34,781 bases of DNA from an uncultured virus (IMG/VR IMGVR_UViG_3300005512_000007) (Duplodnaviria; Heunggongvirae; Uroviricota; Caudoviricetes), in IMG/VR virus record IMGVR_UViG_3300005512_000007; one strand, given 5' to 3'. The first letter of the stretch is position 1. Each line of letters begins with the position of its first letter. The notes beneath the pieces are model-generated. The model had not been told where the DNA came from and made no database searches. It worked only from the letters and a program-made list of their open reading frames with translations. Both the position numbers and the translations under genes were made by a program. Positions 1 to 16,790 of this stretch are shown here, piece after piece.

Positions 1-852
1 CACTTCCGTGTAGATCTCCAGCATCTGATCAACCGGATACCCCCGAATACCGTGGTTCACGTGTTCGATGCGCCTGTCAAGGTTGGACAGCAGTTCGACC
101 ACTTTGGCCGTGACGAACTCGTCGTACTTATTGGGCATCAACTCGCCGGTCTTGAGGTGGCACTCGGCGTACTCGGAGGCAAGGTGACCAAGCGCTTCCC
201 ATTCCTTCGCCTGCTCCACCGTTGCGTTGTGCTCGATGTAATAGGACACATCGTACAAGCCGGAGCGATTCCATTCGATGAGTTCGTCGGCCACCTGATC
301 CAGCGTTGCGTGCTTCGCCTTGAGTAACTCGATGATTTTGTCGAGGTGGTACTGAGAGCGAAGTCGATCTTCCACCTTGGCGAGTCGCTTGATCTGATCG
401 AAATCGAAACCCAACGAGATCCAGTACGGCCACACGGAGCCGGTCTGCTCCCTGTGGTCAATCGCCAGTGCGAGGATTTCCTCGTTGTTATCGGCGTTGG
501 GGTCAATCCGATCACGGAGATTGCCTTCTCGGGCAAAGTCAGACCAATAGAAACAATCCTCAAACGAGAACCCTGCGTCGAACCACGGGGTCACGTCGTC
601 AGGGTCTTTCCCCATTTGATTCACCCATGCTCGGTAGTTCCACGAGATTGCGCCGTGCATCTCCCAGAACTGAGCGGTTTCGACGGGCACATTGAGGCTT
701 GCCCAATCGTCTGCGAAACGGGAGTACCAATCAGATTCGATGTAGGGCTTCGCTTGGTCGTACGTAGCGCCTGCGTCGATGAAGGGTTTTGCGATGTCAC
801 GCTTTACGCCGTGTACCTCACGCCAGTGCTTGAGGGTTGCTCTGTCTGCCAT
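1..852 (-). CDS. Hypothetical Trp-rich protein, truncated by window edge (>284 aa, MADRATLKHWREVHGV...)
   Basis: Absent from the ORF track. Manual translation from ATG at 852 is open to base 1; preceded by GGAGG and the GGAGGACAACTGACATG junction motif. Confidence 0.8.
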   Translation of the reverse strand, partial: MADRATLKHWREVHGVKRDIAKPFIDAGATYDQAKPYIESDWYSRFADDWASLNVPVETAQFWEMHGAISWNYRAWVNQMGKDPDDVTPWFDAGFSFEDCFYWSDFAREGNLRDRIDPNADNNEEILALAIDHREQTGSVWPYWISLGFDFDQIKRLAKVEDRLRSQYHLDKIIELLKAKHATLDQVADELIEWNRSGLYDVSYYIEHNATVEQAKEWEALGHLASEYAECHLKTGELMPNKYDEFVTAKVVELLSNLDRRIEHVNHGIRGYPVDQMLEIYTEV

Positions 853-3682: not shown

Positions 3683-5728
3683 TCACTTGTTGAGGACACC
3701 TCGGAGTGCCCGAGTCAACTCGTCGGGCAGTTGCTCGACTTTCTTGATCTCGGCCACCTCGTCGGCACCGTACGCTTCCTTTGGGATGTAGTCGGAGGCG
3801 TAGCGCACGAGCACGATGTGGCGGTTGGGCCTCGCCCACTGCTGGAGGTCGAAGCCGTCGTTCCACTCACCGTCGGTGAAGACGATGACGAGGTGCTGTG
3901 TGGCACCCTCGTCGTTGTGGTTGTCGAGGTCGTTGAGCGCCTCGGTGGGATCGGTACCGCCGAGCGTGGGCCACACCTGAGGCTTAGGAGCACCGTCGCT
4001 CCAGATGCGGTGGTTCTGCCCGTCGCTGGACCAGAGCGTGAACGATGCTCCGATGCCGAGGTTCTGGCAGGCCAGAGCCGTGGCGTACACCGCCTCGCTG
4101 AGAGCGAGCATCGGGGCACCACCCATCGACACCGACACGTCGCAGAGCATCGAGACGTGAACGTCGAGGCCCTCGTTCGCCAGCCCGTCGAGGTTGCGGA
4201 AGAAGTCCCGATCCCCGACCTGCTTGGTGCGGTATGAGAGAGCGTCGATGGCACCCTCCTCCTGCTGGTTGCGCCAGACCGGCTGGCTCGTGGTCACGAA
4301 GTCGCTGAGAGCGTTCTCGATACCAACGGCGGTGCGATATGCGCTGGCGACCATGTAGTCAGGCATATCGGAGCCGACGAAAGTGATATCAGTCAGCCCA
4401 CCCTTGGTGACGGAGGCCACGGTGTTCTTCGTGATCTCCTGCACCTCCGAGTCGTTGTGGACCTCGGACTTGGCCTGCTTGAGCGCCTGCTCCAGAGCCT
4501 TCTGGAAGTTGTCTTGCCCCTCCTGAGGCTCCTCACCGGCACCGTTGCCGACACCGTGACCTTGACCGGAGTCAGTCTGAGCATCGTCGCTCTCGTCACC
4601 AGCACCGTCGGCACCGGCACCAGCACCGGCATCGTCGCCAGCGCTCTCGCCCTCGTCGCCCTCGGCCTTGGCACCAGCACCGTCGGCATCACCATCGTCA
4701 TCCTTGGTGTCGTCCTCGCCAGCCTCGGTAGCACCACTGGATGCCTTGTTCTCGGCCTCGTTGGTCTCACGCTCGGTGGCACCACGGTCGGGGTGGGTGT
4801 CGTGCTTCGACGTGTCATCGGGGATCTCTTGGTCGAGGAGGAACCTCGACGCTTCGATGACCCAGAACAGGAGGCGGTCGGGAGTGGTCGCCTTCTTGTA
4901 GCCGTTGACGATGTAGAGCCAGACCTCAGCCTTGGTGCCATCGTCTCCGACGTACTGGGTGTACCGGCGACGGGACTCGGCACGCAGTTCCTTCGGCAGG
5001 TAGTCACGACCGGCGAGCAGGAGCCACGAGAGGTTCTTCTGGTGATCGGTCTTGAGCAGGTGCTCGACGATCATCCGAGTGAAGTACGAGCCGATGCGAG
5101 GCACGTCCCTGACCACGGCGCACTCCATGCGCTGGTCCTCGATGGCGTTCCACGCACGGTGGGCACGCTGTGCCCACCCAGAGTTGCCGTTGTTCTTGGA
5201 GTCCTCGTCGAGGGCCTCTTCCCAGACCTCGATGGCCTTCTCCTTGAGGATCGGGAACGGGGTGGTGAACCGGAGGTGCCCCAACTCGTGCTGGAACACG
5301 CCCTTCATCTGGGCGACGGTGTCAGCGATCCGATCGGTGTCCATGACTGACCACAGGTTCTCGGGGTCGAACTTGCTCGGCCACCTGATCACGATCTGAT
5401 CGAAGTCGGTGTAGGCGGTCACCGTGCCGTCGTTCATCCAGCCGGTCTGGAGCGTGGTGGTGACGGACTGCTTGAGTCCGTAGGAGCGCATGACGGCGGT
5501 CTGGGACTCCATCGTCGAGTTCAGGATGTTCGACATGAACCGCTTGTAGTCGAAGTAGTCACGGTTCGCCTCACGGTTGACCGCCTCGTGGATCGAGCGA
5601 CGGATGGCACTACGGTGCTCGCTGAGACGCTTGTCCTGCTCACGCTTGAGTTGGTCGATGGCCTTGCGACGCTGACGGGTGACGGCCTGTCCGAGGCCAC
5701 GCTTGGGCTTGTAGTTGCTGGGAATCAT
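3683..5728 (-). CDS. VWA-domain protein with N-terminal HExxH metallopeptidase-like domain and acidic linker (CobT-like MoxR partner)
   Basis: HELGH and NAIEDQRME; D/G-rich linker; MIDAS DVSVSM...GGT...VFTDG; start reassigned to ATG 5728 after GAGGAGG. Confidence 0.85.
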   Translation of the reverse strand: MIPSNYKPKRGLGQAVTRQRRKAIDQLKREQDKRLSEHRSAIRRSIHEAVNREANRDYFDYKRFMSNILNSTMESQTAVMRSYGLKQSVTTTLQTGWMNDGTVTAYTDFDQIVIRWPSKFDPENLWSVMDTDRIADTVAQMKGVFQHELGHLRFTTPFPILKEKAIEVWEEALDEDSKNNGNSGWAQRAHRAWNAIEDQRMECAVVRDVPRIGSYFTRMIVEHLLKTDHQKNLSWLLLAGRDYLPKELRAESRRRYTQYVGDDGTKAEVWLYIVNGYKKATTPDRLLFWVIEASRFLLDQEIPDDTSKHDTHPDRGATERETNEAENKASSGATEAGEDDTKDDDGDADGAGAKAEGDEGESAGDDAGAGAGADGAGDESDDAQTDSGQGHGVGNGAGEEPQEGQDNFQKALEQALKQAKSEVHNDSEVQEITKNTVASVTKGGLTDITFVGSDMPDYMVASAYRTAVGIENALSDFVTTSQPVWRNQQEEGAIDALSYRTKQVGDRDFFRNLDGLANEGLDVHVSMLCDVSVSMGGAPMLALSEAVYATALACQNLGIGASFTLWSSDGQNHRIWSDGAPKPQVWPTLGGTDPTEALNDLDNHNDEGATQHLVIVFTDGEWNDGFDLQQWARPNRHIVLVRYASDYIPKEAYGADEVAEIKKVEQLPDELTRALRGVLNK

Positions 5729-5767
5729 TGGTACCTCCTCAGGTATCAGATGGGTATGGAGTGGTAT

Positions 5768-5802
5768 GAGAGGGGCAGGGAAGGGGGAACCCTGCCCCTC
5801 TC
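5768..5802 (-). terminator. 13-bp GC hairpin between the AAA+ and VWA genes (no U-tract)
   Basis: GAGAGGGGCAGGG/CCCTGCCCCTCTC. Confidence 0.45.
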
Positions 5803-5804
5803 GA

Positions 5805-7091
5805 TCAGACGACGCTGTCGGTTGCGTCGGTGGACGGAGCCGTGGCAGGAGCCTCGGCAGGACCGAAGACGCTCGTCGGGTACTCAGCCCTGAGCACGTC
5901 GAGGAAGCCTCGGTCTTCGATGATGGTCTGGACTCGCTCACGCTCGGCAGGAGGGAACATGCCGGTGAACACCCAGATGGCGTTGTCCACGCCGAACGTG
6001 GCGCAGTCAGCGTTGAGGCGCTGGAGGGCGCTGGTACCGACCGGCGTGGTCAGGACTCGCTGGTTGCGAGCCTCACGGATCGCACTGCCGATGCCACGGA
6101 CGGTGGGCGACGGGACGAGGGTCTCCTCGACGTTGTCGGCGTAGTCCCACGGCATCCAGCGGAACCGGTTGGTGCTGGCCTCGGCCATCGACTGCGTGCC
6201 CTTGTAGCCGGGGTTGATCGTGGCGAGGACCCAGAGGTTGGGGTTGGCCTTGATGACCTCGGGGGCATACCCACCGTGACCGTCGGGCACCGCTCGCTGG
6301 TAGTTCACGAACGAGCGCCGGTCGTCGAGCACGGGGTGCAGGGCAGTGGCCTGCGACGGAGCGACGGCGTTCCACTCGTCGAGGTAGAGGAAGCCACCGC
6401 AGTGGAGGGCACGAGGCACGAGGCCGTCCATCCAGACGAGGCTCTCTCGACCATCGACCACGACGGCGCTGGTCATGCCGAAGAGGTCGTAGTTGGAGAT
6501 GCCCACCGAGCCGTTCAGGGTGAAGATCGGGTACGGCTTGGGCAGGCCGTCACGCTCGGCTGAGAGCACGGCGAGGACCTGAACGAGCATGGTCTTGCCC
6601 GACTGGGTCTCACCGACGAGGGCGACGTTGGGGCTGTAGCCACGGCTGTCACGCTGGTCTCGCATGTGGAGCAGGTAGTCCACGTCGGTCAGGCCACCGG
6701 CCACGACTCGACTGACGTACTGCTTGACCACGTCAGTCGGGGGACGGAACTGGTCGAGCGCAGGGTCCATCGGATCGGTGATGGACTGGGCCTCGACGAG
6801 GCGACCCTGCTCGATGACGCTCAGGTCAGCGCCGACCGGCACTGGGGCTGGAGCCACCGGAGCAGGGAGCGGAGCAGGAGCGACGGACGGCAGTTCCAGT
6901 TGACGGGGGAGCACCCACGTCTCGTGGGCACTGCCGTTGGGACCGAGGCCCTCGATGGCGACGAGGACCTTGCGCTGGTGCTCGGTTCCATCGGGAGCCA
7001 CGTCGGGGCTGACGACGGAAGCGAGGTGGCCCTCGAAGGGACCGCTGGTGATCTGGACGGTGAGTCCACGGGTCAGGTGCTTGGCTTTCAT
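5805..7091 (-). CDS. MoxR/CbbQ/CobS-like AAA+ ATPase
   Basis: Walker A GETQSGKT, Walker B LYLDEWN, sensor ATINPGY, Arg finger STNRF. Confidence 0.9.
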   Translation of the reverse strand: MKAKHLTRGLTVQITSGPFEGHLASVVSPDVAPDGTEHQRKVLVAIEGLGPNGSAHETWVLPRQLELPSVAPAPLPAPVAPAPVPVGADLSVIEQGRLVEAQSITDPMDPALDQFRPPTDVVKQYVSRVVAGGLTDVDYLLHMRDQRDSRGYSPNVALVGETQSGKTMLVQVLAVLSAERDGLPKPYPIFTLNGSVGISNYDLFGMTSAVVVDGRESLVWMDGLVPRALHCGGFLYLDEWNAVAPSQATALHPVLDDRRSFVNYQRAVPDGHGGYAPEVIKANPNLWVLATINPGYKGTQSMAEASTNRFRWMPWDYADNVEETLVPSPTVRGIGSAIREARNQRVLTTPVGTSALQRLNADCATFGVDNAIWVFTGMFPPAERERVQTIIEDRGFLDVLRAEYPTSVFGPAEAPATAPSTDATDSVV

Positions 7092-7128
7092 GGTGACCTC
7101 CTCAGGTCTGGGTATGGGTTGGTTGGAT

Positions 7129-7159
7129 ATTGCTATCAGGTGGGTGTGACAGTGAGCAA
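7129..7159 (-). promoter_or_regulatory. Early promoter: TTGCTC-18-TAGCAA(T) with TGTCACACCC box
   Basis: Third copy of the architecture. Confidence 0.6.
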
Positions 7160-7160
7160 G

Positions 7161-7469
7161 TCACCCGACAGCGGTGCTGTTGGGGAACGTGCGCTTGATG
7201 AAGTGGGCGGTCTTGCCCATGCTCTGGGTCGAGCCGAGGGTGATGAGGGCGAGGTCGATGCTCCCACCCTCGTACTCCCAGATCGACACCGAGCCGTTGC
7301 GAGCCTTCCAACTGATGACGGCGAGCGTCGGACAGTCTCGGCTCTTGATCAGGGCGATGTCTCGCACCGCCTCGGACTCGCCCTCGATGTTCATGACGGT
7401 CGAGTTGGCCGTGGCCGTGATCGTGACGGCGAGCGTCCCGATCTGCTGGGTCTCGTGGAGCACGCTCAT
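7161..7469 (-). CDS. Hypothetical protein (102 aa)
   Basis: ATGA overlap; GGAGG SD. Confidence 0.7.
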   Translation of the reverse strand: MSVLHETQQIGTLAVTITATANSTVMNIEGESEAVRDIALIKSRDCPTLAVISWKARNGSVSIWEYEGGSIDLALITLGSTQSMGKTAHFIKRTFPNSTAVG

Positions 7470-7771
7470 CGCAGGCCCTCCTGCTCCTCGTAGTCATCGA
7501 CGATGGCCTCGGCCACCGCACGACGGGTGGGCACGTCGAAGACGCTCCACCAGCGGTCGCTGGGGCTGGCGAACTCCTTGCAGTAGCGACGGGCGCACTG
7601 CCCGACGACGGCCTCGATGAAGGCGACGGCCCGAGCCGAGTCATACTCGCCTCGACGTACGTGCTTGCCGATGGTGGCGAGCGCCTGCTGGACCTGCTGG
7701 TACGAGGTGGAGTCGTTGTCGATGTAGAGGCTGAGTTCGACAGCCTCGTGGTTGTAGGTGCTGGTGGTCAT
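7466..7771 (-). CDS. Hypothetical phage early protein (ELSLYIDND motif)
   Basis: GAGGAGG SD; helical acidic protein. Confidence 0.75.
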   Translation of the reverse strand: MTTSTYNHEAVELSLYIDNDSTSYQQVQQALATIGKHVRRGEYDSARAVAFIEAVVGQCARRYCKEFASPSDRWWSVFDVPTRRAVAEAIVDDYEEQEGLR

Positions 7772-7811
7772 GTTCCCTCCTCAGGGTTGGTATGGGTTGG
7801 TATGGGTAAGG

Positions 7812-7835
7812 GGGGAGGGGGTTGCCCCCCTCCCC
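7812..7835 (-). terminator. 10-bp GC hairpin with GCAA loop after the helicase gene (no U-tract)
   Basis: GGGGAGGGGG-TTGC-CCCCCTCCCC on plus strand. Confidence 0.45.
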
Positions 7836-7840
7836 GTCGG

Positions 7841-9301
7841 TCAGCGGTACGAGTCGAGGATGCCCTCGACCATGTCACCGAGGAGGTAGTCACCCTCCCC
7901 GTCGATCACCTCGCCACTGGCGAAGTTCTTGCTCTCCAGCATCCCGAAGAGGCGCTCGTCGATGGTCCAGCGACCCTCGATGTGAGCGAGGGCGATCTCG
8001 ACCTCCACGTCGTTGGTCTGGCCGATCCGGTGAAGGCGATCCTCGGCCTGACGGAGGTCAGCCGGAGTCCACGGGAGTTGGACCACGAGCACTCGGTGGT
8101 TGAGACCGTTGCCGTGGAGCGTGAGGCCAACGCCAGCCGAGATGATCTGGCCGACGAGCACTCGGGACTGACCCGAGGTGAACGCATCGACGGCCTCGGT
8201 CTTGTCAGCGTCGGACATGCCACCTCGGATGGCGACGGGGTTGTACTTGGCGAGACCGAGGAGCAGGCGATCCATCACGTCGGCGTGCTCGGCCACGATG
8301 AAGATGCCACCCTCCTGCTCGTCGAGGACCTCGGAGGCGTGCTCGACCGCCGACTTGACCTTGGCCTCGCCAGCGAGACGGCGGAGCGTCGTGAGTCGAA
8401 CGAGGGCCTCGGCACGCTCGGCACCCCGAGTGTTCCGCCCCTCCTCAGCGAGCCAGTTGATCAGGTCGTTCTCGGCCATGGCGTAGTCCTTGGCAGGCTT
8501 GCCGAGGCACTCCAGCGAGAGACCCGAGCGCCCCTTGTTGGGGAGGTCGATGACCTCGTCCCGACGACGGCGCATCATGAACGAGCCGACGAGGGCATCG
8601 TGGAGTTCGGCACCGTAGTCGTTGCCACGGCCACCCCACGAGTCCGTCTTCGGGCAGTAGCGGTTCCAGAAGAGGCCCTTGCCACCGATGTCACGCCACG
8701 CCCCAGCACCGAGCACGTCGATCTGGGAGGCGAGTTCGATGTGGCGACCGTTGGGGGTCGGGGTGCCCGAGAGCAGGACCCGAGGACCGGCGACGGAGCC
8801 AGCGATCATGGCGAGGGCCTTGGCACGCTTGCTCTTGCCGTTCTTGTGGCGGTGGGCCTCATCGACGACGACGGCACCGACTCGACCGGTCAGGGCCTCG
8901 GCCCAGTGGGCCACGGTGCTGTCACCGATCACGAGCACGTCGGCATCGGGGACCTCGGTGACCTTGGTGCCCGAGAGCACGGCCACGTCGAGCCACGGGG
9001 CGAACTTGGCGAACTCCCGAACCCAGTTGGTGCGGAGGCTCGGGGGCACGACCACGAGGCCGGTGGGGATACCGACGGCGTGGGCGCTGGCGAGCACGGC
9101 GATACCGCACGGGGTCTTGCCGAGGCCCATGTCGAGGGCGAGGTACGCCCACGGGCTGTTGGCCGTGTCACGGAGAGCGTGGGCCACGGCCTCCTGCTGG
9201 AAGTCGAGCAGGGGCAGGGCGAGATCGACCGGAGTGATCGAGGTGCCGATGGTGGTTGGCGCTGGAGCGGAGCCAGCGAGCAGGTCAGCAAGGGTGGTCA
9301 T
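7841..9301 (-). CDS. SNF2-family (SF2) helicase/ATPase
   Basis: LDMGLGKT, DEAH, LSGTP, GVGLTL, QAEDRLHRIGQ. Confidence 0.93.
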   Translation of the reverse strand: MTTLADLLAGSAPAPTTIGTSITPVDLALPLLDFQQEAVAHALRDTANSPWAYLALDMGLGKTPCGIAVLASAHAVGIPTGLVVVPPSLRTNWVREFAKFAPWLDVAVLSGTKVTEVPDADVLVIGDSTVAHWAEALTGRVGAVVVDEAHRHKNGKSKRAKALAMIAGSVAGPRVLLSGTPTPNGRHIELASQIDVLGAGAWRDIGGKGLFWNRYCPKTDSWGGRGNDYGAELHDALVGSFMMRRRRDEVIDLPNKGRSGLSLECLGKPAKDYAMAENDLINWLAEEGRNTRGAERAEALVRLTTLRRLAGEAKVKSAVEHASEVLDEQEGGIFIVAEHADVMDRLLLGLAKYNPVAIRGGMSDADKTEAVDAFTSGQSRVLVGQIISAGVGLTLHGNGLNHRVLVVQLPWTPADLRQAEDRLHRIGQTNDVEVEIALAHIEGRWTIDERLFGMLESKNFASGEVIDGEGDYLLGDMVEGILDSYR

Positions 9302-9347
9302 GGTTGGTCCTCCTTAGGACTCGTTGTGTATGGGTATGGGGAGGGTA

Positions 9348-10016
9348 TCAGACGGCTGTCGTCTGACCCCAAGGTAGGTCGTGGTGACCGGCGCAGACCG
9401 GCCCGTAGCCGACCTCGATGGAGCGCTCGTCGGTGAGATCACGGGCGCAGAACATGCACACGCCCGTGGTGTGGCCGTACTCGGAGGCGATCCGAGCGAG
9501 GGCCTCGCCCTTGAGGATCACACCCTGCTGGGCACGCTGGAGCAGGCCGGACTCGTAGGTCCAGCGCCCCTCGACGAGGCGCTTGCCGTACGGGCGACCG
9601 CTCTTCCCAGCGACGATCATGATCACGTCGTCGCCCAAGGCGACTAGGTCCCCCGTCTGGGGATCGCACTGGGGAGCCTGCTTCGGCTGAGCGAGGCGCA
9701 CGACGTGGGGGCGCTGTTTGTCGGACAGCGAGCCACGCTTGTCGTACTGCTGGATCAGCGACGAGGCGAAGGCCATGTCACGGGGATCGAGCGTCGGCAG
9801 GGCCTGACGGAGGGCCTCGACCTCGGCCTTGAGGTCGTCGTCCTCGGGCTGGGGATCACGGGGCACCGTCTGGAGCACGGTGATCAGGGCGCTGGCCTCC
9901 TTGCTGGTGTTGCAGGGCATGGCGAGCACGTTGGCGTGGGTCGAGCCGAGGGCGGTGGTGCGCTCGGCGCAGAGGTTGGCGATGAAGAGTCGCTGGCGGT
10001 CGGTGACAGGGTTCAT
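9348..10016 (-). CDS. DUF6011-type Zn-binding protein
   Basis: C-terminal CMFCARDLTDERSIEVGYGPVCA; start reassigned to ATG 10016 after GGAGG. Confidence 0.8.
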   Translation of the reverse strand: MNPVTDRQRLFIANLCAERTTALGSTHANVLAMPCNTSKEASALITVLQTVPRDPQPEDDDLKAEVEALRQALPTLDPRDMAFASSLIQQYDKRGSLSDKQRPHVVRLAQPKQAPQCDPQTGDLVALGDDVIMIVAGKSGRPYGKRLVEGRWTYESGLLQRAQQGVILKGEALARIASEYGHTTGVCMFCARDLTDERSIEVGYGPVCAGHHDLPWGQTTAV

Positions 10017-10093
10017 GGGTTCCTCCAGAGGGAGACGAACACGGCGATGGCCGTGAGGCTGACGGGGATGAAGTAGAGCAGGGCGACGAGCAT
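10013..10093 (-). CDS. Small membrane peptide (26 aa)
   Basis: MLVALLYFIPVSLTAIAVFVSLWRNP fills the gap and is coupled to both neighbours. Confidence 0.5.
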   Translation of the reverse strand: MLVALLYFIPVSLTAIAVFVSLWRNP

Positions 10094-10095
10094 GA

Positions 10096-10335
10096 TCACC
10101 AAGCCGTCGAGGCAATGTCGTTGAAGTGATCGGCCCAGCCGTTGTGGCTGGCGACGGCCTGACGGACGGCACCGGCCACGGTGCGAGGCTTGCCCGACTC
10201 GGTCCAGCCGAACTCCTCGACCAGTTCCTTGTCGGAGTAGCACTCGTCGATGACCGAGCAGGTGTAGCGACCAACCTTGGCGTGATCACGGATGGCCTCG
10301 ACGATCTCGTCGGCGTGGGGATGTTGAATGGACAT
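10096..10335 (-). CDS. Hypothetical protein (79 aa), first gene of the left operon
   Basis: AAGGAGG SD. Confidence 0.75.
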   Translation of the reverse strand: MSIQHPHADEIVEAIRDHAKVGRYTCSVIDECYSDKELVEEFGWTESGKPRTVAGAVRQAVASHNGWADHFNDIASTAW

Positions 10336-10354
10336 GGTTGGACCTCCTTAGGTC

Positions 10355-11025
10355 TCTGTGGGTAGGGCACCGGAGTGTGCCCCCACCGGCCACGACGATG
10401 GTGAATCGTGACCAGTGGGCGCACCCTCCGGCGAGGGTGCAGTACGTCGAGCGTGGGGTAGGTAATCAGCCCCAGAGTCAGGGGTCGTGCCCCATCACCG
10501 TTGCCGTTCGTCGCACTCTTCAGCGTCGGTGTCATCGCAGGGTTGCCGTTGCCCACCCTGCCGTCCGCTGGTGCTGTCTTTCACTTCCAACGATGACACC
10601 GTGCTGAACACTCACTTGCCGCTCTCTCCCGTACTTGCCGGACTGTCTCGCCGTCTGCCCGTCGGTACTCCGTCGGGTTCGGACTCAAGCCCTGCCACGT
10701 TCCTCGCCCCCGAAGGGGAGGCCGTCTGTCGCTGGTCGTATGACTCACTGAGTACATACCGAGGGGGTCATATGCCCTCGGTATCGGGGTGGGTTCGCAT
10801 CCCCGTTGTTCGTCGCTCTCCCAGCCCGTCCAAGGCGGTGGGGGTAGTGCTGGAGTACCAGCCCCCCAGTGCCCGTTCAGGGTGGGTTCGCTATCTCGGC
10901 AGACCGTGGCGCTCCCCTCGGTCCCACCGTCACCCTCTCACCGGTCCGTCCTGACTGAGCATCCTCGGACTCGGTGGCACTGGGCGACGGGGGCATCTCG
11001 TGGGTCGCTCCCCGGCGACAACTCC
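10355..11025 (-). ncRNA. Candidate large structured RNA or leader of the early operon
   Basis: Many nested stems; cUUCGg loop and a G-U pair read correctly on the minus strand; no credible ORF. Confidence 0.5.
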
Positions 11026-11295
11026 AGTAACTCATGGCGACCCCGAGATAACCAAGGAATCGGGGAAGAATCTTTATTTATTTTGCTGAATGAGTATGCA
11101 GGGTCCCCCGACACGGCCCCCCGAGATCCTGCTTCTAGGACATAGATACGTGTAGGGGAGAGAGACCGAGAGAGTGACACAGGATTCAGGGGAGTAGCGG
11201 TAGCAACTGTGTCAGTGGTGGATGACACAGTTGTACCTACCAACACCAGCGAACGTGTGTCATTAGTCACAGCGGTAGGCCCAGCCGTCGGGCAG

Positions 11296-11311
11296 TGTGA
11301 CCTTTGTCACG
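11296..11311. promoter_or_regulatory. CRP/GlxR-like site TGTGA-N6-TCACG
   Basis: One mismatch to TGTGA-N6-TCACA. Confidence 0.45.
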
Positions 11312-11562
11312 TGATTCTGGCACTTGCCCCCATTGCCCCCTGTATGCCCCTCTGCCGAGAGTGGGGGCGATATGACGTGGTAGTGCGGGAGGGGGCGAGA
11401 TCGGAGCACCAGCGCGATTTCCACATGCTGGGGATAACCCCGGAAACCCTTGTGGCACAACGGTTTACCGGTGGGTAACCGAGATTCGACGTCCACAGGG
11501 TTTTCAACAGGTTTGGAGGGGGTATCTACAATCACATCAGGGTTTCTCGGGGCGATTTCCAC

Positions 11563-11576
11563 AGAACATATGTTCT
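11563..11576. promoter_or_regulatory. LexA (SOS) box-like AGAAC-ATAT-GTTCT
   Basis: Matches the Gram-positive GAAC-N4-GTTC core. Confidence 0.5.
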
Positions 11577-11590
11577 TGTGGATAAAACAG

Positions 11591-11606
11591 GGTGACAAAT
11601 GTCACA
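11591..11606. promoter_or_regulatory. CRP/GlxR-like site GGTGA-N6-TCACA
   Basis: One mismatch to consensus. Confidence 0.45.
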
Positions 11607-11619
11607 CAAATGCCCTTGA

Positions 11620-11634
11620 CAAACACATGTTCGA
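11620..11634. promoter_or_regulatory. LexA box-like CAAAC-ACAT-GTTCGA overlapping a TTGACA
   Basis: Close to actinobacterial TCGAAC-N4-GTTCGA. Confidence 0.45.
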
Positions 11635-11936
11635 TCCGTTGTCCACAGGGGGTGTGGATAACCCGCCCCCCGGAAACCCTTGTAAATCAAGGGGGAGCAC
11701 GACTTGACAGGGTTGTCAAGGGGTATTTATCCACAGGCAGAGACCCCCCCACCCTTAGATATCCACAGGTTGTGGACAAAGGGGTAGATCACACCAGCCG
11801 AGGACTGTGACAATGGCCACATAGGCCCCTACAAAAATGCTGCCACTCGATAATCGGCCCCACATATAGGCCCGTATGAGAATTCGGCCCCACACTGAGT
11901 GCTGAAGTAGTAACTTAGTCCTCGGAGGTAGAAGGA

Positions 11937-12383
11937 ATGACGTTAGGACCACAGTTCTATCCACGACACGAGTCCGTTTCCAGCAATATCAGTTTGCGTA
12001 AAGACGCACCGCTGTACCACGGTACTGGTGGTGAAATTGAAGGCGGCGTAGTCCGACCAAGTGCTGACTACGTTCTGGACGGTCGAGGACTCGCTTTCTC
12101 CGCAGAGTCACCTTCCACTGCTGAGTACTACGCAAGGCTGGGAGCCAAAGGGCAGGGTCGCCTGTTCGGGACGGTCTATGAGGTAGAGCCGATGTCGGAT
12201 GATGCAAAAATAACCGAAACAATCGGCGGTAAATCCGTCGTCACCGACCCAGAGGGTCTGAGAACCAAAAGGGCTGTGAGTTTCCCTGCCGTTCACGACT
12301 ACTCCGAAGAGCACAAGGCCCTAGCGGAAGAGCGCAAAGCCCATGCGGAAGCCGTTGATCGAATCATGGAGTTCTTTAGATGA
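11937..12383 (+). CDS. ADP-ribosyltransferase-fold protein (YHGT type) with MTLGPQF N-terminus
   Basis: LYHGT...AFSAES..AEYYA...VYEVEP resembles Arr/PARP-like ART cores. Confidence 0.65.
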   Translation: MTLGPQFYPRHESVSSNISLRKDAPLYHGTGGEIEGGVVRPSADYVLDGRGLAFSAESPSTAEYYARLGAKGQGRLFGTVYEVEPMSDDAKITETIGGKSVVTDPEGLRTKRAVSFPAVHDYSEEHKALAEERKAHAEAVDRIMEFFR

Positions 12384-12769
12384 CTCTCGGACCACAGTTT
12401 CAACGTGTCTATCGAGGCATTGAAGCCGATACGGTTGGCGACATTGACCTTGACCGGTTGGGCCATCACTGGACCACTGACCGTCGGACAGCGCAGTCCT
12501 ATGCCACGGTAGGTATGGAGTCGGGACAACCTCGGGCGGGGGCCGTTGTTGAGGCGCTCGTCCATAACCGGAACATCGTTCATCGCGGTACGCCGGAGTG
12601 GGAAGCCCGTGGGGACGAACTGAACTACATGCCGGACTGGGATCAGGACGAAGTGCCGGTCATTCCCGGGCGACCGGTCCATGTTCAGTCAGTAGAGATG
12701 TGGGATGAGCATGACCGAGATGTTCAACCCCCTGCTTCAAAATTCACTCGGCGCGTTCAGGAGTACTGA
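12380..12769 (+). CDS. ADP-ribosyltransferase-fold protein (YRG type) with MTLGPQF N-terminus
   Basis: VYRG...HWTTDRRTAQSYA...QDEVPV resembles an R-S-E ART core; ATGA coupling. Confidence 0.6.
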   Translation: MTLGPQFQRVYRGIEADTVGDIDLDRLGHHWTTDRRTAQSYATVGMESGQPRAGAVVEALVHNRNIVHRGTPEWEARGDELNYMPDWDQDEVPVIPGRPVHVQSVEMWDEHDRDVQPPASKFTRRVQEY

Positions 12770-16304: not shown

Positions 16305-16790
16305 ATGGATAGTAAATCTTACACAGACAACGAACTGATAGATGCCGTGAAGTCCTCTTTCAGTATTAGCGAAGTACTTAGACGTCTTGGTCTACAGCCT
16401 GCGGGCGGCAACTACAGAGTATTCCACCAAAACGTAAACAGGTTAGGATTAGACACCTCTCATTTTACGGGACAAAAATGGAGAAAAGGAGCCAGAGAAT
16501 CAGTAGTTAAACGCAAGCCGCTAGAAGAGTTACTTGTTTCAAACAGTTCGTACAGCACCTATAGACTTAAGAACAGACTAATAGAAGAAGGCGTTTTTGA
16601 GAGGAAGTGCTCAAGTTGCGGACTGTTGGAGTGGATGGGTGTTCCTATGCCGTTAGAGTTAGAGCACATTAACGGCACCAACAATGACCACAGGCTTGAA
16701 AATCTATGCCTTTTGTGTCCGAATTGCCACGCCCTGACAAGTACCTACAGGGGTAGAAACAAGAAAAAGCGAGCGGGATTGGTGGAATAG
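16305..16790 (+). CDS. HNH endonuclease with N-terminal DNA-binding domain, tRNA-associated
   Basis: CSSC...LELEHING..NDHRLENL.LLCPNCH; AT-richer than neighbours; last 6 codons overlap tRNA-Leu. Confidence 0.92.
   Translation: MDSKSYTDNELIDAVKSSFSISEVLRRLGLQPAGGNYRVFHQNVNRLGLDTSHFTGQKWRKGARESVVKRKPLEELLVSNSSYSTYRLKNRLIEEGVFERKCSSCGLLEWMGVPMPLELEHINGTNNDHRLENLCLLCPNCHALTSTYRGRNKKKRAGLVE

Follow-up and report, generated by a model that had tools for sequence, protein, structure and literature searches.

A putative non-coding leader cassette ending in a conserved predicted hairpin, ahead of the leftward early genes of an uncultured, actinophage-like virus

To our knowledge, most described cases of a long untranslated leader or an RNA cassette downstream of a phage early promoter come from lambdoid prophages in E. 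coli. In the pL-N leader of phage lambda, and at the early RNase III sites of phage T7, a long, near-perfect hairpin with small internal loops lies before the ribosome site of an early gene, and cleavage of the hairpin reshapes the 5′ end of the downstream gene and its translation. The put element of phage HK022 is a two-stem structure of about 70 nt just after the promoter. DicF is a non-coding RNA encoded in the dicBF operon of the Qin prophage, where RNase III together with RNase E frees it from a polycistronic transcript (PMC10448788).

We analyzed a 34,781-nt stretch of DNA (hereafter, the window) from an uncultured tailed phage. The phage is actinophage-like; in the large terminase, it shares 46% identity with the Streptomyces phages BRock and LuckySocke. 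Ahead of its leftward early genes lies a stretch that the initial annotation had proposed as a large structured RNA. The reading that we favor, with slightly less than even confidence, is that an exchangeable, rapidly evolving non-coding leader or RNA cassette occupies this stretch and ends in a conserved RNA hairpin.

Genomic setting and coding tests

Replication-type genes run leftward on the minus strand from 10335 and encode a 79-aa protein, a DUF6011 protein, an SNF2 helicase, and an AAA protein; plus-strand genes begin at 11937 and lead on to the terminase and portal. A gene-free gap of 1.6 kb (10336-11936) separates the two operons, and the cassette is its left 0.7 kb. GC content averages about 56% over the window, with an island of 62-68% at 4000-11050. 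The initial annotation had put the candidate at the head of the leftward early operon, and this placement was supported. The first gene starts at ATG 10335, and the cassette fills the first slot of the operon.

Four genotypes were comparable with the window, namely L001/L003, L007, the P0001-P0005 set, and L012. In the closest relative, represented by L001 and L003, which are mutually identical across 1,300 nt, the sequence leftward of 10356 is 96% identical to the window and that rightward of 11062 is 83-91% identical. Between these positions, L001 and L003 carry unrelated sequence with a 187-aa ORF that bears a clear signature of coding (GC1/2/3 of.68/.49/.85) and has its own hairpin holding the ribosome-binding site. 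From this break in homology, we therefore take the candidate to be a cassette at 10357-11061, in a slot that is also able to hold a protein gene. A non-coding stretch does lie at 10355-11025, as first annotated, but the true unit has these other boundaries. The main features of the region are as follows:

10357-11061, minus strand (705 nt): non-coding cassette, its ends set by loss of homology to L001/L003
11033-11071, minus strand: conserved 5′ terminus, with the promoter-proximal motifs ATTCTTCCCCGA (11060-11071) and GGGTCGCCATG (11033-11043), both found in L012 too
11062-11936, no strand assigned: conserved control region between the divergent operons, with operator-like palindromes and a DnaA-box-like cluster
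10340-10354, minus strand: Shine-Dalgarno hairpin GACCU-AAGG-AGGUC of the 79-aa first gene (ATG 10335), with an A-U to G-C change in L012

The cassette is 65% GC, and its RNA strand consists of 21% A, 14% U, 34% G, and 31% C. The annotation had seen no credible ORF, and this was upheld: GC content differs among codon phases by at most 0.20 over 10340-11060, compared with a spread of 0.40-0.55 in the adjacent genes, and none of the ORFs within the cassette departs from a flat GC1/2/3. Near-identical variants differ by a 1-nt indel near 10945 that shifts the frame of all ORFs spanning that position. A Pfam/PHROG search with seven cassette ORFs gave no match at E 0.1 or better. Besides copies of the cassette, a whole-library protein search returned only a PKD-repeat protein (E 3.6e-4), a match judged to be due to chance, its score being summed over repeats. 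A protein-coding gene or pseudogene was accordingly rejected on the flat codon-phase GC, the indel among variants, and the absence of Pfam/PHROG matches. We also rejected a decayed copy of the L001 gene (the best tblastn match with the L001 ORF had an E of 0.77), a small conserved ORF with its start at GGGTCGCCATG (weak ribosome site, no periodicity, and the indel among variants), and an internal duplication (a single 59-nt pair of 69% identity). Also considered informally, and set aside, were a CRISPR-repeat mimic, a ToxI-like array, a CsrB-like sponge, and a small TIR transposon. The stretch is non-coding.

The control region to the right is well conserved, with a mean column identity of 90% across three genotypes at 11062-11870. 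Operator-like palindromes lie at 11255, 11295, and 11590 (GTGTGACAnnTGTCACAC type) and at 11204-11233; the GTGTGACAnnTGTCACAC type has four matches, against 0.26 expected. The DnaA-box-like 9-mer TTATCCACA matches the window 14 times with one mismatch, a number reached by 0 of 100 shuffles, and seven of these matches fall within 350 nt (11429-11779).

At the promoter-proximal end, the motif TTCTTCCCCGA is kept in L012, with GGGTCGCCATG about 20 nt downstream. The AT-rich tract pointed out in the annotation is present at 11068-11090. TTCTTCCCC occurs in L003 too, as it does by inference in the P0002 genotype. Because L007 has neither the AT-rich tract nor TTCTTCCCC, the position of the promoter is uncertain; in the place of the tract, L007 carries a TTATCCACA box. 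A scan near 11062 for a sigma-70-type promoter of the leftward operon found none.

Placed after the promoter of a long operon and ahead of its first gene, the stretch could be a cis-acting antitermination leader, similar to HK022 put or to nut/boxA, that would allow read-through of the early genes. The cassette is untranslated, G-rich, and structured, and might for that reason resist Rho; in addition, the presumed start is close to two conserved 5′ motifs, TTCTTCCCCGA and GGGTCGCCATG. However, the promoter-proximal 90 nt or so show no fold excess (z of -0.67 in the window and +0.91 in L012), and the Rfam scan gave no boxA-like or put-like match; the put-like element suggested in the annotation received no support either way. 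Moreover, L001/L003 have the same operon without the cassette. The sole strongly conserved structure is found at the other end, just ahead of the first gene and some 630-690 nt away from the promoter-proximal boundary. We regard an antitermination leader as highly doubtful.

Turnover of the slot among relatives

The L007 contig starts at window position 10385 and shares 10385-10740 at 89% identity, with long exact stretches; its flanks are 94-96% identical. Within the shared part, there is a variable patch at about 10566-10590, and identity declines towards 10740. The 5′ part of the L007 version, about 320 nt up to the control region, can barely be aligned with the window (alignment z of 2.6-2.7). 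The L007 version is non-coding too, has the same composition (21% A, 13% U), and folds with a z of -2.3.

Near-identical copies were found in at least five independent assemblies (the window, P0001, P0003, P0004, and P0005), the latter four differing from the window by a few substitutions and the 1-nt indel near 10945. P0001-P0005 were detected by probing protein collections with translated junk ORFs, further searches of this kind yielding no match, and statements about their DNA are inferred from amino-acid sequences. The P0002 genotype, found on five contigs (the longest being 59 kb), shares about 10772-10905 and 11020-11061 with the window; between the shared parts, about 135 nt appear to have been replaced by about 48 nt. 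Of four substitutions deduced in P0002, one changes a G-U pair to G-C and another disrupts a predicted pair, the other two being in predicted loops.

L012 (record G002, 68 kb) is a distant relative with few alignable segments, which are 71-80% identical. Its genes after the slot encode proteins of 108 aa and 68 aa and then the DUF6011 homologue. In the same place as the cassette, it has about 600 nt without codon periodicity (57-65% GC, 12-18% T) that fold with a z of -3.6 and are mostly unalignable to the window. An excess of A over U (about 21% A, 13-17% U) characterizes the 600-700-nt stretch in three diverged genotypes and is absent from coding sense strands. On these sequence comparisons, the cassette is mosaic among relatives.

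Other searches added little. With blastn, 10336-11936 and 10330-10450 had no match among GenBank phages, and 10336-11060 had none among plasmids. A pattern built on the two GCGAACCCACCC copies gave 0 matches in viral contigs. Of the junk-ORF translations compared with viral contigs, the 155-aa and 89-aa probes found L007 and the 118-aa probe found nothing; a match of one junk ORF to a genome contig was spurious (24 nt in a cyanobacterial coding region). A metagenome scan with the neighboring DUF6011 protein returned L003, L004 (partial), and two irrelevant loci.

Folding of the cassette and its terminal hairpin

The annotation had held that the structure favors the minus strand and had proposed a comparison of its folding energy with dinucleotide shuffles. 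The strand preference was supported over 725 nt, with a z of -5.71 on the minus strand versus -3.86 on the plus strand (20 dinucleotide shuffles each), and the 705-nt cassette likewise gave -4.86 versus -3.87 (60 shuffles each). The stretch does fold better than dinucleotide shuffles, but eight 705-nt coding controls from the same high-GC block gave z values of -3.56, +0.18, -3.06, -2.05, -3.66, -3.19, -0.12, and -2.66, and the excess of the whole cassette goes only modestly past them. Since coding sequence of the same length also reaches about -3.7, fold energy alone is weak evidence. Segments of 360 nt elsewhere in the window have z values down to -4 to -5, with one of -9; those inside the candidate range from -0.9 to -5.9, the middle (10441-10980) giving just -0.9 to -1.9. 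Only the 3′ part is exceptional: the most stable local minus-strand structure of the window is at 10355-10442 (-54.2 kcal/mol, top of the 129 at -30 kcal/mol or below).

All of the inverted repeats named in the annotation are present. The pair 10527-10537/10591-10601 matches over 11 nt at 100%; 10858-10873/10976-10991 and 10756-10765/10775-10784 are in the program's list of repeats, and 10421-10428/10433-10440 and 10365-10370/10377-10382 can be read directly in the sequence. The CCCC-UUCG-GGGG hairpin occurs on the minus strand as described, and the repeated motif GGGTGGGTTCGC belongs to a repeat family (D7).

Scanned against Rfam at gathering thresholds, the whole window had one match, its sole tRNA, at 16773; the cassette does not adjoin tRNA genes. 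A permissive scan of 10250-12000 (E up to 10) yielded seven matches, all at E of at least 0.21 and at least 26 bits under their gathering scores; the unmatched families include GOLLD, ROOL, OLE, HEARO, raiA, DicF, introns, and riboswitches. The annotation was thus right to call the candidate undescribed, in that it matches no known Rfam family.

Its further suggestion of a large RNA, compared with GOLLD and ROOL and taken here as a single, globally folded RNA acting in trans, fared less well. The length, the GC richness, the many stable hairpins, the minus-strand z of -4.9 to -5.7, and the occurrence of at least five near-identical copies across independent assemblies are all in keeping with such an RNA. 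Yet no Rfam family matches at E up to 10, and both sequence and length vary: the nearest relative has a protein gene in the slot and two others keep only parts, with the 5′ 320 nt essentially unrelated in L007 and an apparent replacement of about 135 nt by about 48 nt in P0002, as read from a translated junk ORF. Furthermore, the middle of the stretch shows no folding advantage over shuffles, nor does the RNAalifold consensus for the diverged part surpass column shuffles (z -1.6; 12 of 200). We consider one large conserved RNA very unlikely.

Three local structures in the cassette body could be compared with L007:

10518-10608, minus strand: branched hairpin (predicted fold, -43.8 kcal/mol) on the 11-bp repeat, with stems kept in L007
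10640-10692, minus strand: possible 5-bp helix (10688-10692 with 10640-10644) closing a small domain, with two compensatory pairs in L007
10696-10725, minus strand: CCUCCCC-UUCG-GGGGCGAGG hairpin, kept in L007 with changes in the loop and bulge only

The stems of the branched hairpin are unchanged in L007 except for one A-U to G-U change, which only the minus strand can accommodate; a further six differences are confined to a single side branch, which loses two of its five predicted pairs. No counterpart was recognized in L012. A covariance-model search with the 10512-10614 hairpin, the structure line of which was off by a few columns, found the window and L007 only and carries no weight as to structure. 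In the possible 5-bp helix, position 10644 is A in the window and, as deduced from the substitution L53P, G in the four near-identical variants, changing U-A to U-G; compensatory pairs such as those of this helix are what RNAalifold selects for. Collinear C4/G4 hairpins of the CCUCCCC...GGGGGCG type are also present in L012. In the consensus fold, the conserved 3′ 245 nt reached a z of -3.0 (0 of 200 column shuffles). Evidence for conserved structure in the cassette body is thin.

These observations bear on the possibility that the cassette is mostly functionless filler in a recombination hot-spot slot, its 0.6-kb body being decaying or shuffled passenger DNA, in which only the terminal hairpin and the promoter-proximal motif would act. 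The body is replaced, truncated, or unalignable among relatives, and the consensus fold of the diverged part does not beat its column shuffles, as given above. The whole-cassette z is within about 1.7 sd of the coding controls, and a GC content of 65% is compatible with neutral drift where the GC3 of neighboring genes is 0.62-0.85. By contrast, filler would not readily account for the A>U skew and the non-coding length of 600-700 nt kept in three diverged genotypes, for the survival of collinear islands and some compatible stem changes, or for the lack of both residual codon periodicity from a decayed gene and similarity to the L001 ORF. We judge filler to be unlikely, while still giving it appreciable weight.

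At the 3′ end of the cassette, an extended hairpin and two hairpins that compete with it are predicted:

10368-10433, minus strand (about 66 nt): extended RNA hairpin, the minimum-energy fold in both the window and L012
10421-10440, minus strand: alternative hairpin a, GCACCCUC-GCCG-GAGGGUGC, which excludes the base of the long hairpin
10365-10382, minus strand: alternative hairpin b, GGGCAC-ACUCCG-GUGCCC, which excludes the long hairpin and has 100% conservation in L012

In the window's own fold, the extended hairpin comprises 8 bp, a 1x1 loop, 4 bp, a second 1x1 loop, and 15 bp, and its consensus with L012 has 23 pairs, every one paired in both sequences. Its flanks are identical in L012 (26/26 and 23/23, or 49 of 49), and the center differs yet remains self-complementary, with two compensatory changes and one compatible one-sided change in the apical stem. 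When the ribosome-site hairpin is included, all 27 consensus pairs (23 + 4) are kept, with three compensatory changes and one one-sided change; with partners slid by 1-3 columns, 36-50% were paired and compensatory changes fell to zero. In a covariation shuffle test, which has no real power because there are only two distinct sequences, 64 of 500 shuffles reached the observed value. The z of the hairpin is -4.21 in the window and -3.62 in L012 on the RNA strand (0 of 200 shuffles as good), and -0.85 and -1.93 on the opposite strand. Judged from these comparisons, the predicted hairpin is conserved, strand-specific, and supported by compensatory changes.

The hairpin is absent from L001/L003, where a protein gene fills the slot, and is kept with the non-coding cassette despite different downstream genes (79 aa in the window, 108 aa in L012). 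Because it stays with the cassette and is missing where there is a protein gene, we read it as the 3′-terminal element of the non-coding RNA. Its basal 17 bp are invariant, a pattern that fits recognition of a protein or DNA-level kind as well as it fits RNA structure. It could, then, be an element of the DNA, namely a protein-binding site or a single-strand hairpin such as a priming signal, belonging to the neighboring DnaA-box origin region. The arms show 100% conservation that extends to the loops of the alternative hairpins; operator-like palindromes and a dense cluster of DnaA boxes are situated at a distance of 0.7-1.4 kb; and G-T pairs in single-stranded DNA would favor the same strand. 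However, compensatory changes keep the center self-complementary, which a double-stranded DNA binding site does not need, and the hairpin moves with the cassette rather than with the DnaA-box region, which L001/L003 keep without the element. A role at the DNA level seems to us most improbable.

The basal arms of the long hairpin are complementary to invariant bases outside it, GCACCCUC upstream and GUGCCC downstream. In the window, the long hairpin (-60.1 kcal/mol) and a three-hairpin fold (-59.4 kcal/mol) are nearly equal in energy, with ensemble shares of about 0.51 and 0.44. The corresponding values in L012 are -56.1 and -53.5 kcal/mol, with shares of 0.955 and 0.035; bistability is not clearly conserved, because the long hairpin dominates there. 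In the model of a two-state switch, the invariance of every base, loops included, would be explained; the bases of both folds are all invariant, and as such are uninformative for or against it.

The annotation had linked the candidate to hairpins that hold Shine-Dalgarno sequences. Four 5-bp hairpins of this type lie at minus-strand ribosome sites (5731, 7094, 9306, and 10340), and their outer pairs covary. The link stands as regards position: the one at 10340 directly follows the long hairpin, covaries, and begins 13 nt downstream of it, followed by the start codon.

The predicted long hairpin probably serves in processing, 3′-end formation, or attenuation. Its helices of 8, 4, and 15 bp have the extent expected of an RNase III-type substrate (at least 20 bp, or about two turns of near-continuous double-stranded RNA). 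The terminator scan lists no canonical intrinsic terminator at 10340-10440, and the sequence that follows the hairpin, CCCUACCCACAGAGACC, has no U run; the lack of a U-tract argues against a terminator of this kind.

Interpretation and comparison with known systems

In the model that we favor, a promoter at or just upstream of TTCTTCCCCGA would make the cassette the first 0.7 kb or so of the early transcript. The body, which is GC-rich, U-poor, and hairpin-rich, evolves rapidly, through substitutions and indels as well as the exchange of blocks, and one lineage has a protein gene in its place. The 3′ end, by comparison, appears strongly constrained as a hairpin with a near-equal three-hairpin alternative, followed by the ribosome-site hairpin and the start codon. 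The long hairpin may be a site for processing by a double-strand-specific (RNase III-type) enzyme, or a 3′-end or attenuation hairpin. In either role, its effect would be to detach the leader RNA from the mRNA that follows and to control how much transcription and translation enters the operon. The downstream operon does not need the cassette, because the closest relative does without it.

A bolder reading, which we think improbable, is that the cassette is an accessory gene with an RNA product: an early non-coding RNA of 0.6-0.7 kb, interchangeable with protein genes, delimited or released by the conserved 5′ motif and the two-state 3′ hairpin, and acting in trans on the host. If so, it might be a decoy or counter-defense RNA, which would explain the rapid sequence turnover. 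More generally, if the body is functional, its rapid turnover points to an arms-race role; if it is functionless, it would show that a load of non-coding DNA is tolerated at the most highly expressed position of the phage. The analysis further singles out a short and sharply conserved element, in which a long hairpin capable of an alternative fold precedes a hairpin-held ribosome site; it is a candidate processing or control site.

A search of the literature on comparable actinophage leaders found nothing specific, which does not prove their absence. A layout similar to those known is now seen in an unrelated, uncultured, GC-rich phage lineage, in a slot that is filled by 0.7 kb of non-coding sequence in some members and by a protein gene in others. 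Like GOLLD and ROOL (PMC12286853, PMC5737381), the cassette is large, phage-associated, and non-coding; unlike them, it has no covariance-model match and no conserved global architecture, and it does not lie beside tRNA genes. With HK022 put, it shares the placement of a cis RNA in a phage early leader, but its promoter-proximal part is unstructured and its conserved hairpin is at the far end.

The lambda and T7 systems come closer. As in the lambda N leader and at the T7 sites, the cassette hairpin lies directly upstream of an early-gene ribosome-binding site. The lambda and T7 leaders are at most about 200 nt long and either carry nut sites or lie between genes, whereas the cassette hairpin follows 0.6 kb of non-coding RNA. 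The cassette hairpin also differs in having an isoenergetic alternative fold, and it belongs to an uncultured phage.

DicF (PMC10448788) resembles the cassette in being an RNA of a repressor-controlled phage early operon, located upstream of protein genes. The settings are alike as well, in that operator-like palindromes precede the cassette and a long, predicted double-stranded hairpin closes it. The cassette resembles DicF neither in sequence nor by Rfam. It has about ten times the length of DicF, is at the very first position instead of after small ORFs, and its processing is only predicted. By analogy, DicF, the lambda N leader, and the T7 sites are its closest counterparts, alike in the way that they would work and not as relatives.

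The region between the divergent operons

DnaA-box-like 9-mers (TTATCCACA, TTGTCCACA and TGTGGATAA) were densely clustered at 11429-11779 of the window, with frequent convergent pairing. Conservation of this cluster was high in L003, from the closest relative, and in L007, a second relative, and was 76% in the distant relative L012. The cluster lies between the divergent operons and probably marks either a phage origin or a region under DnaA control. In addition, 18-bp palindromes of the GTGTGACAnnTGTCACAC type recurred in both the window and L012, and they look like repressor operator sites.

Palindromes of the GTGTGACAnnTGTCACAC type
11204-11233, window
11255-11272, window
11295-11312, window
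11590-11607, window
735-760, L012
778-797, L012
860-878, L012
948-966, L012

In L012, one of these palindromes has the TTCTTCCCC motif immediately downstream of it. The two leading rightward genes, 11937-12383 and 12380-12769, both start with MTLGPQF... and look like paralogues; L007 lacks the former gene.

Composition and folding of the leftward genes and cassette slot

The leftward replication genes, together with the non-coding cassette, are spanned by a GC island (4000-11050) of 62-68% GC. GC averages about 55% elsewhere in the window, which suggests that the island is a module with a different origin. Among the fold z values of the scan, the most extreme was -9.06 (360-nt window, 20 shuffles), on the minus strand at 6661-7020, within the AAA-protein gene.

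In the closest relative, the cassette slot is occupied by a 187-aa protein (L001 326-889, same in L003) whose middle part is proline-rich. This protein matched no Pfam family, and its sole PHROG match was weak (E 0.0047).

Shine-Dalgarno hairpins

In several leftward genes, the Shine-Dalgarno sequence is placed inside a 5-bp hairpin, NNCCU-nAGG-AGGNN.

Shine-Dalgarno hairpins
5731-5745, minus strand, window
7094-7108, minus strand, window
9306-9320, minus strand, window
10340-10354, minus strand, window
about 305-325, L001
970-988 (approximate), L001

The pattern matched five times in the window, versus 1.2 expected, and the outer pairs of the hairpins covary (GA/UC, GU/AC and UA/UA).
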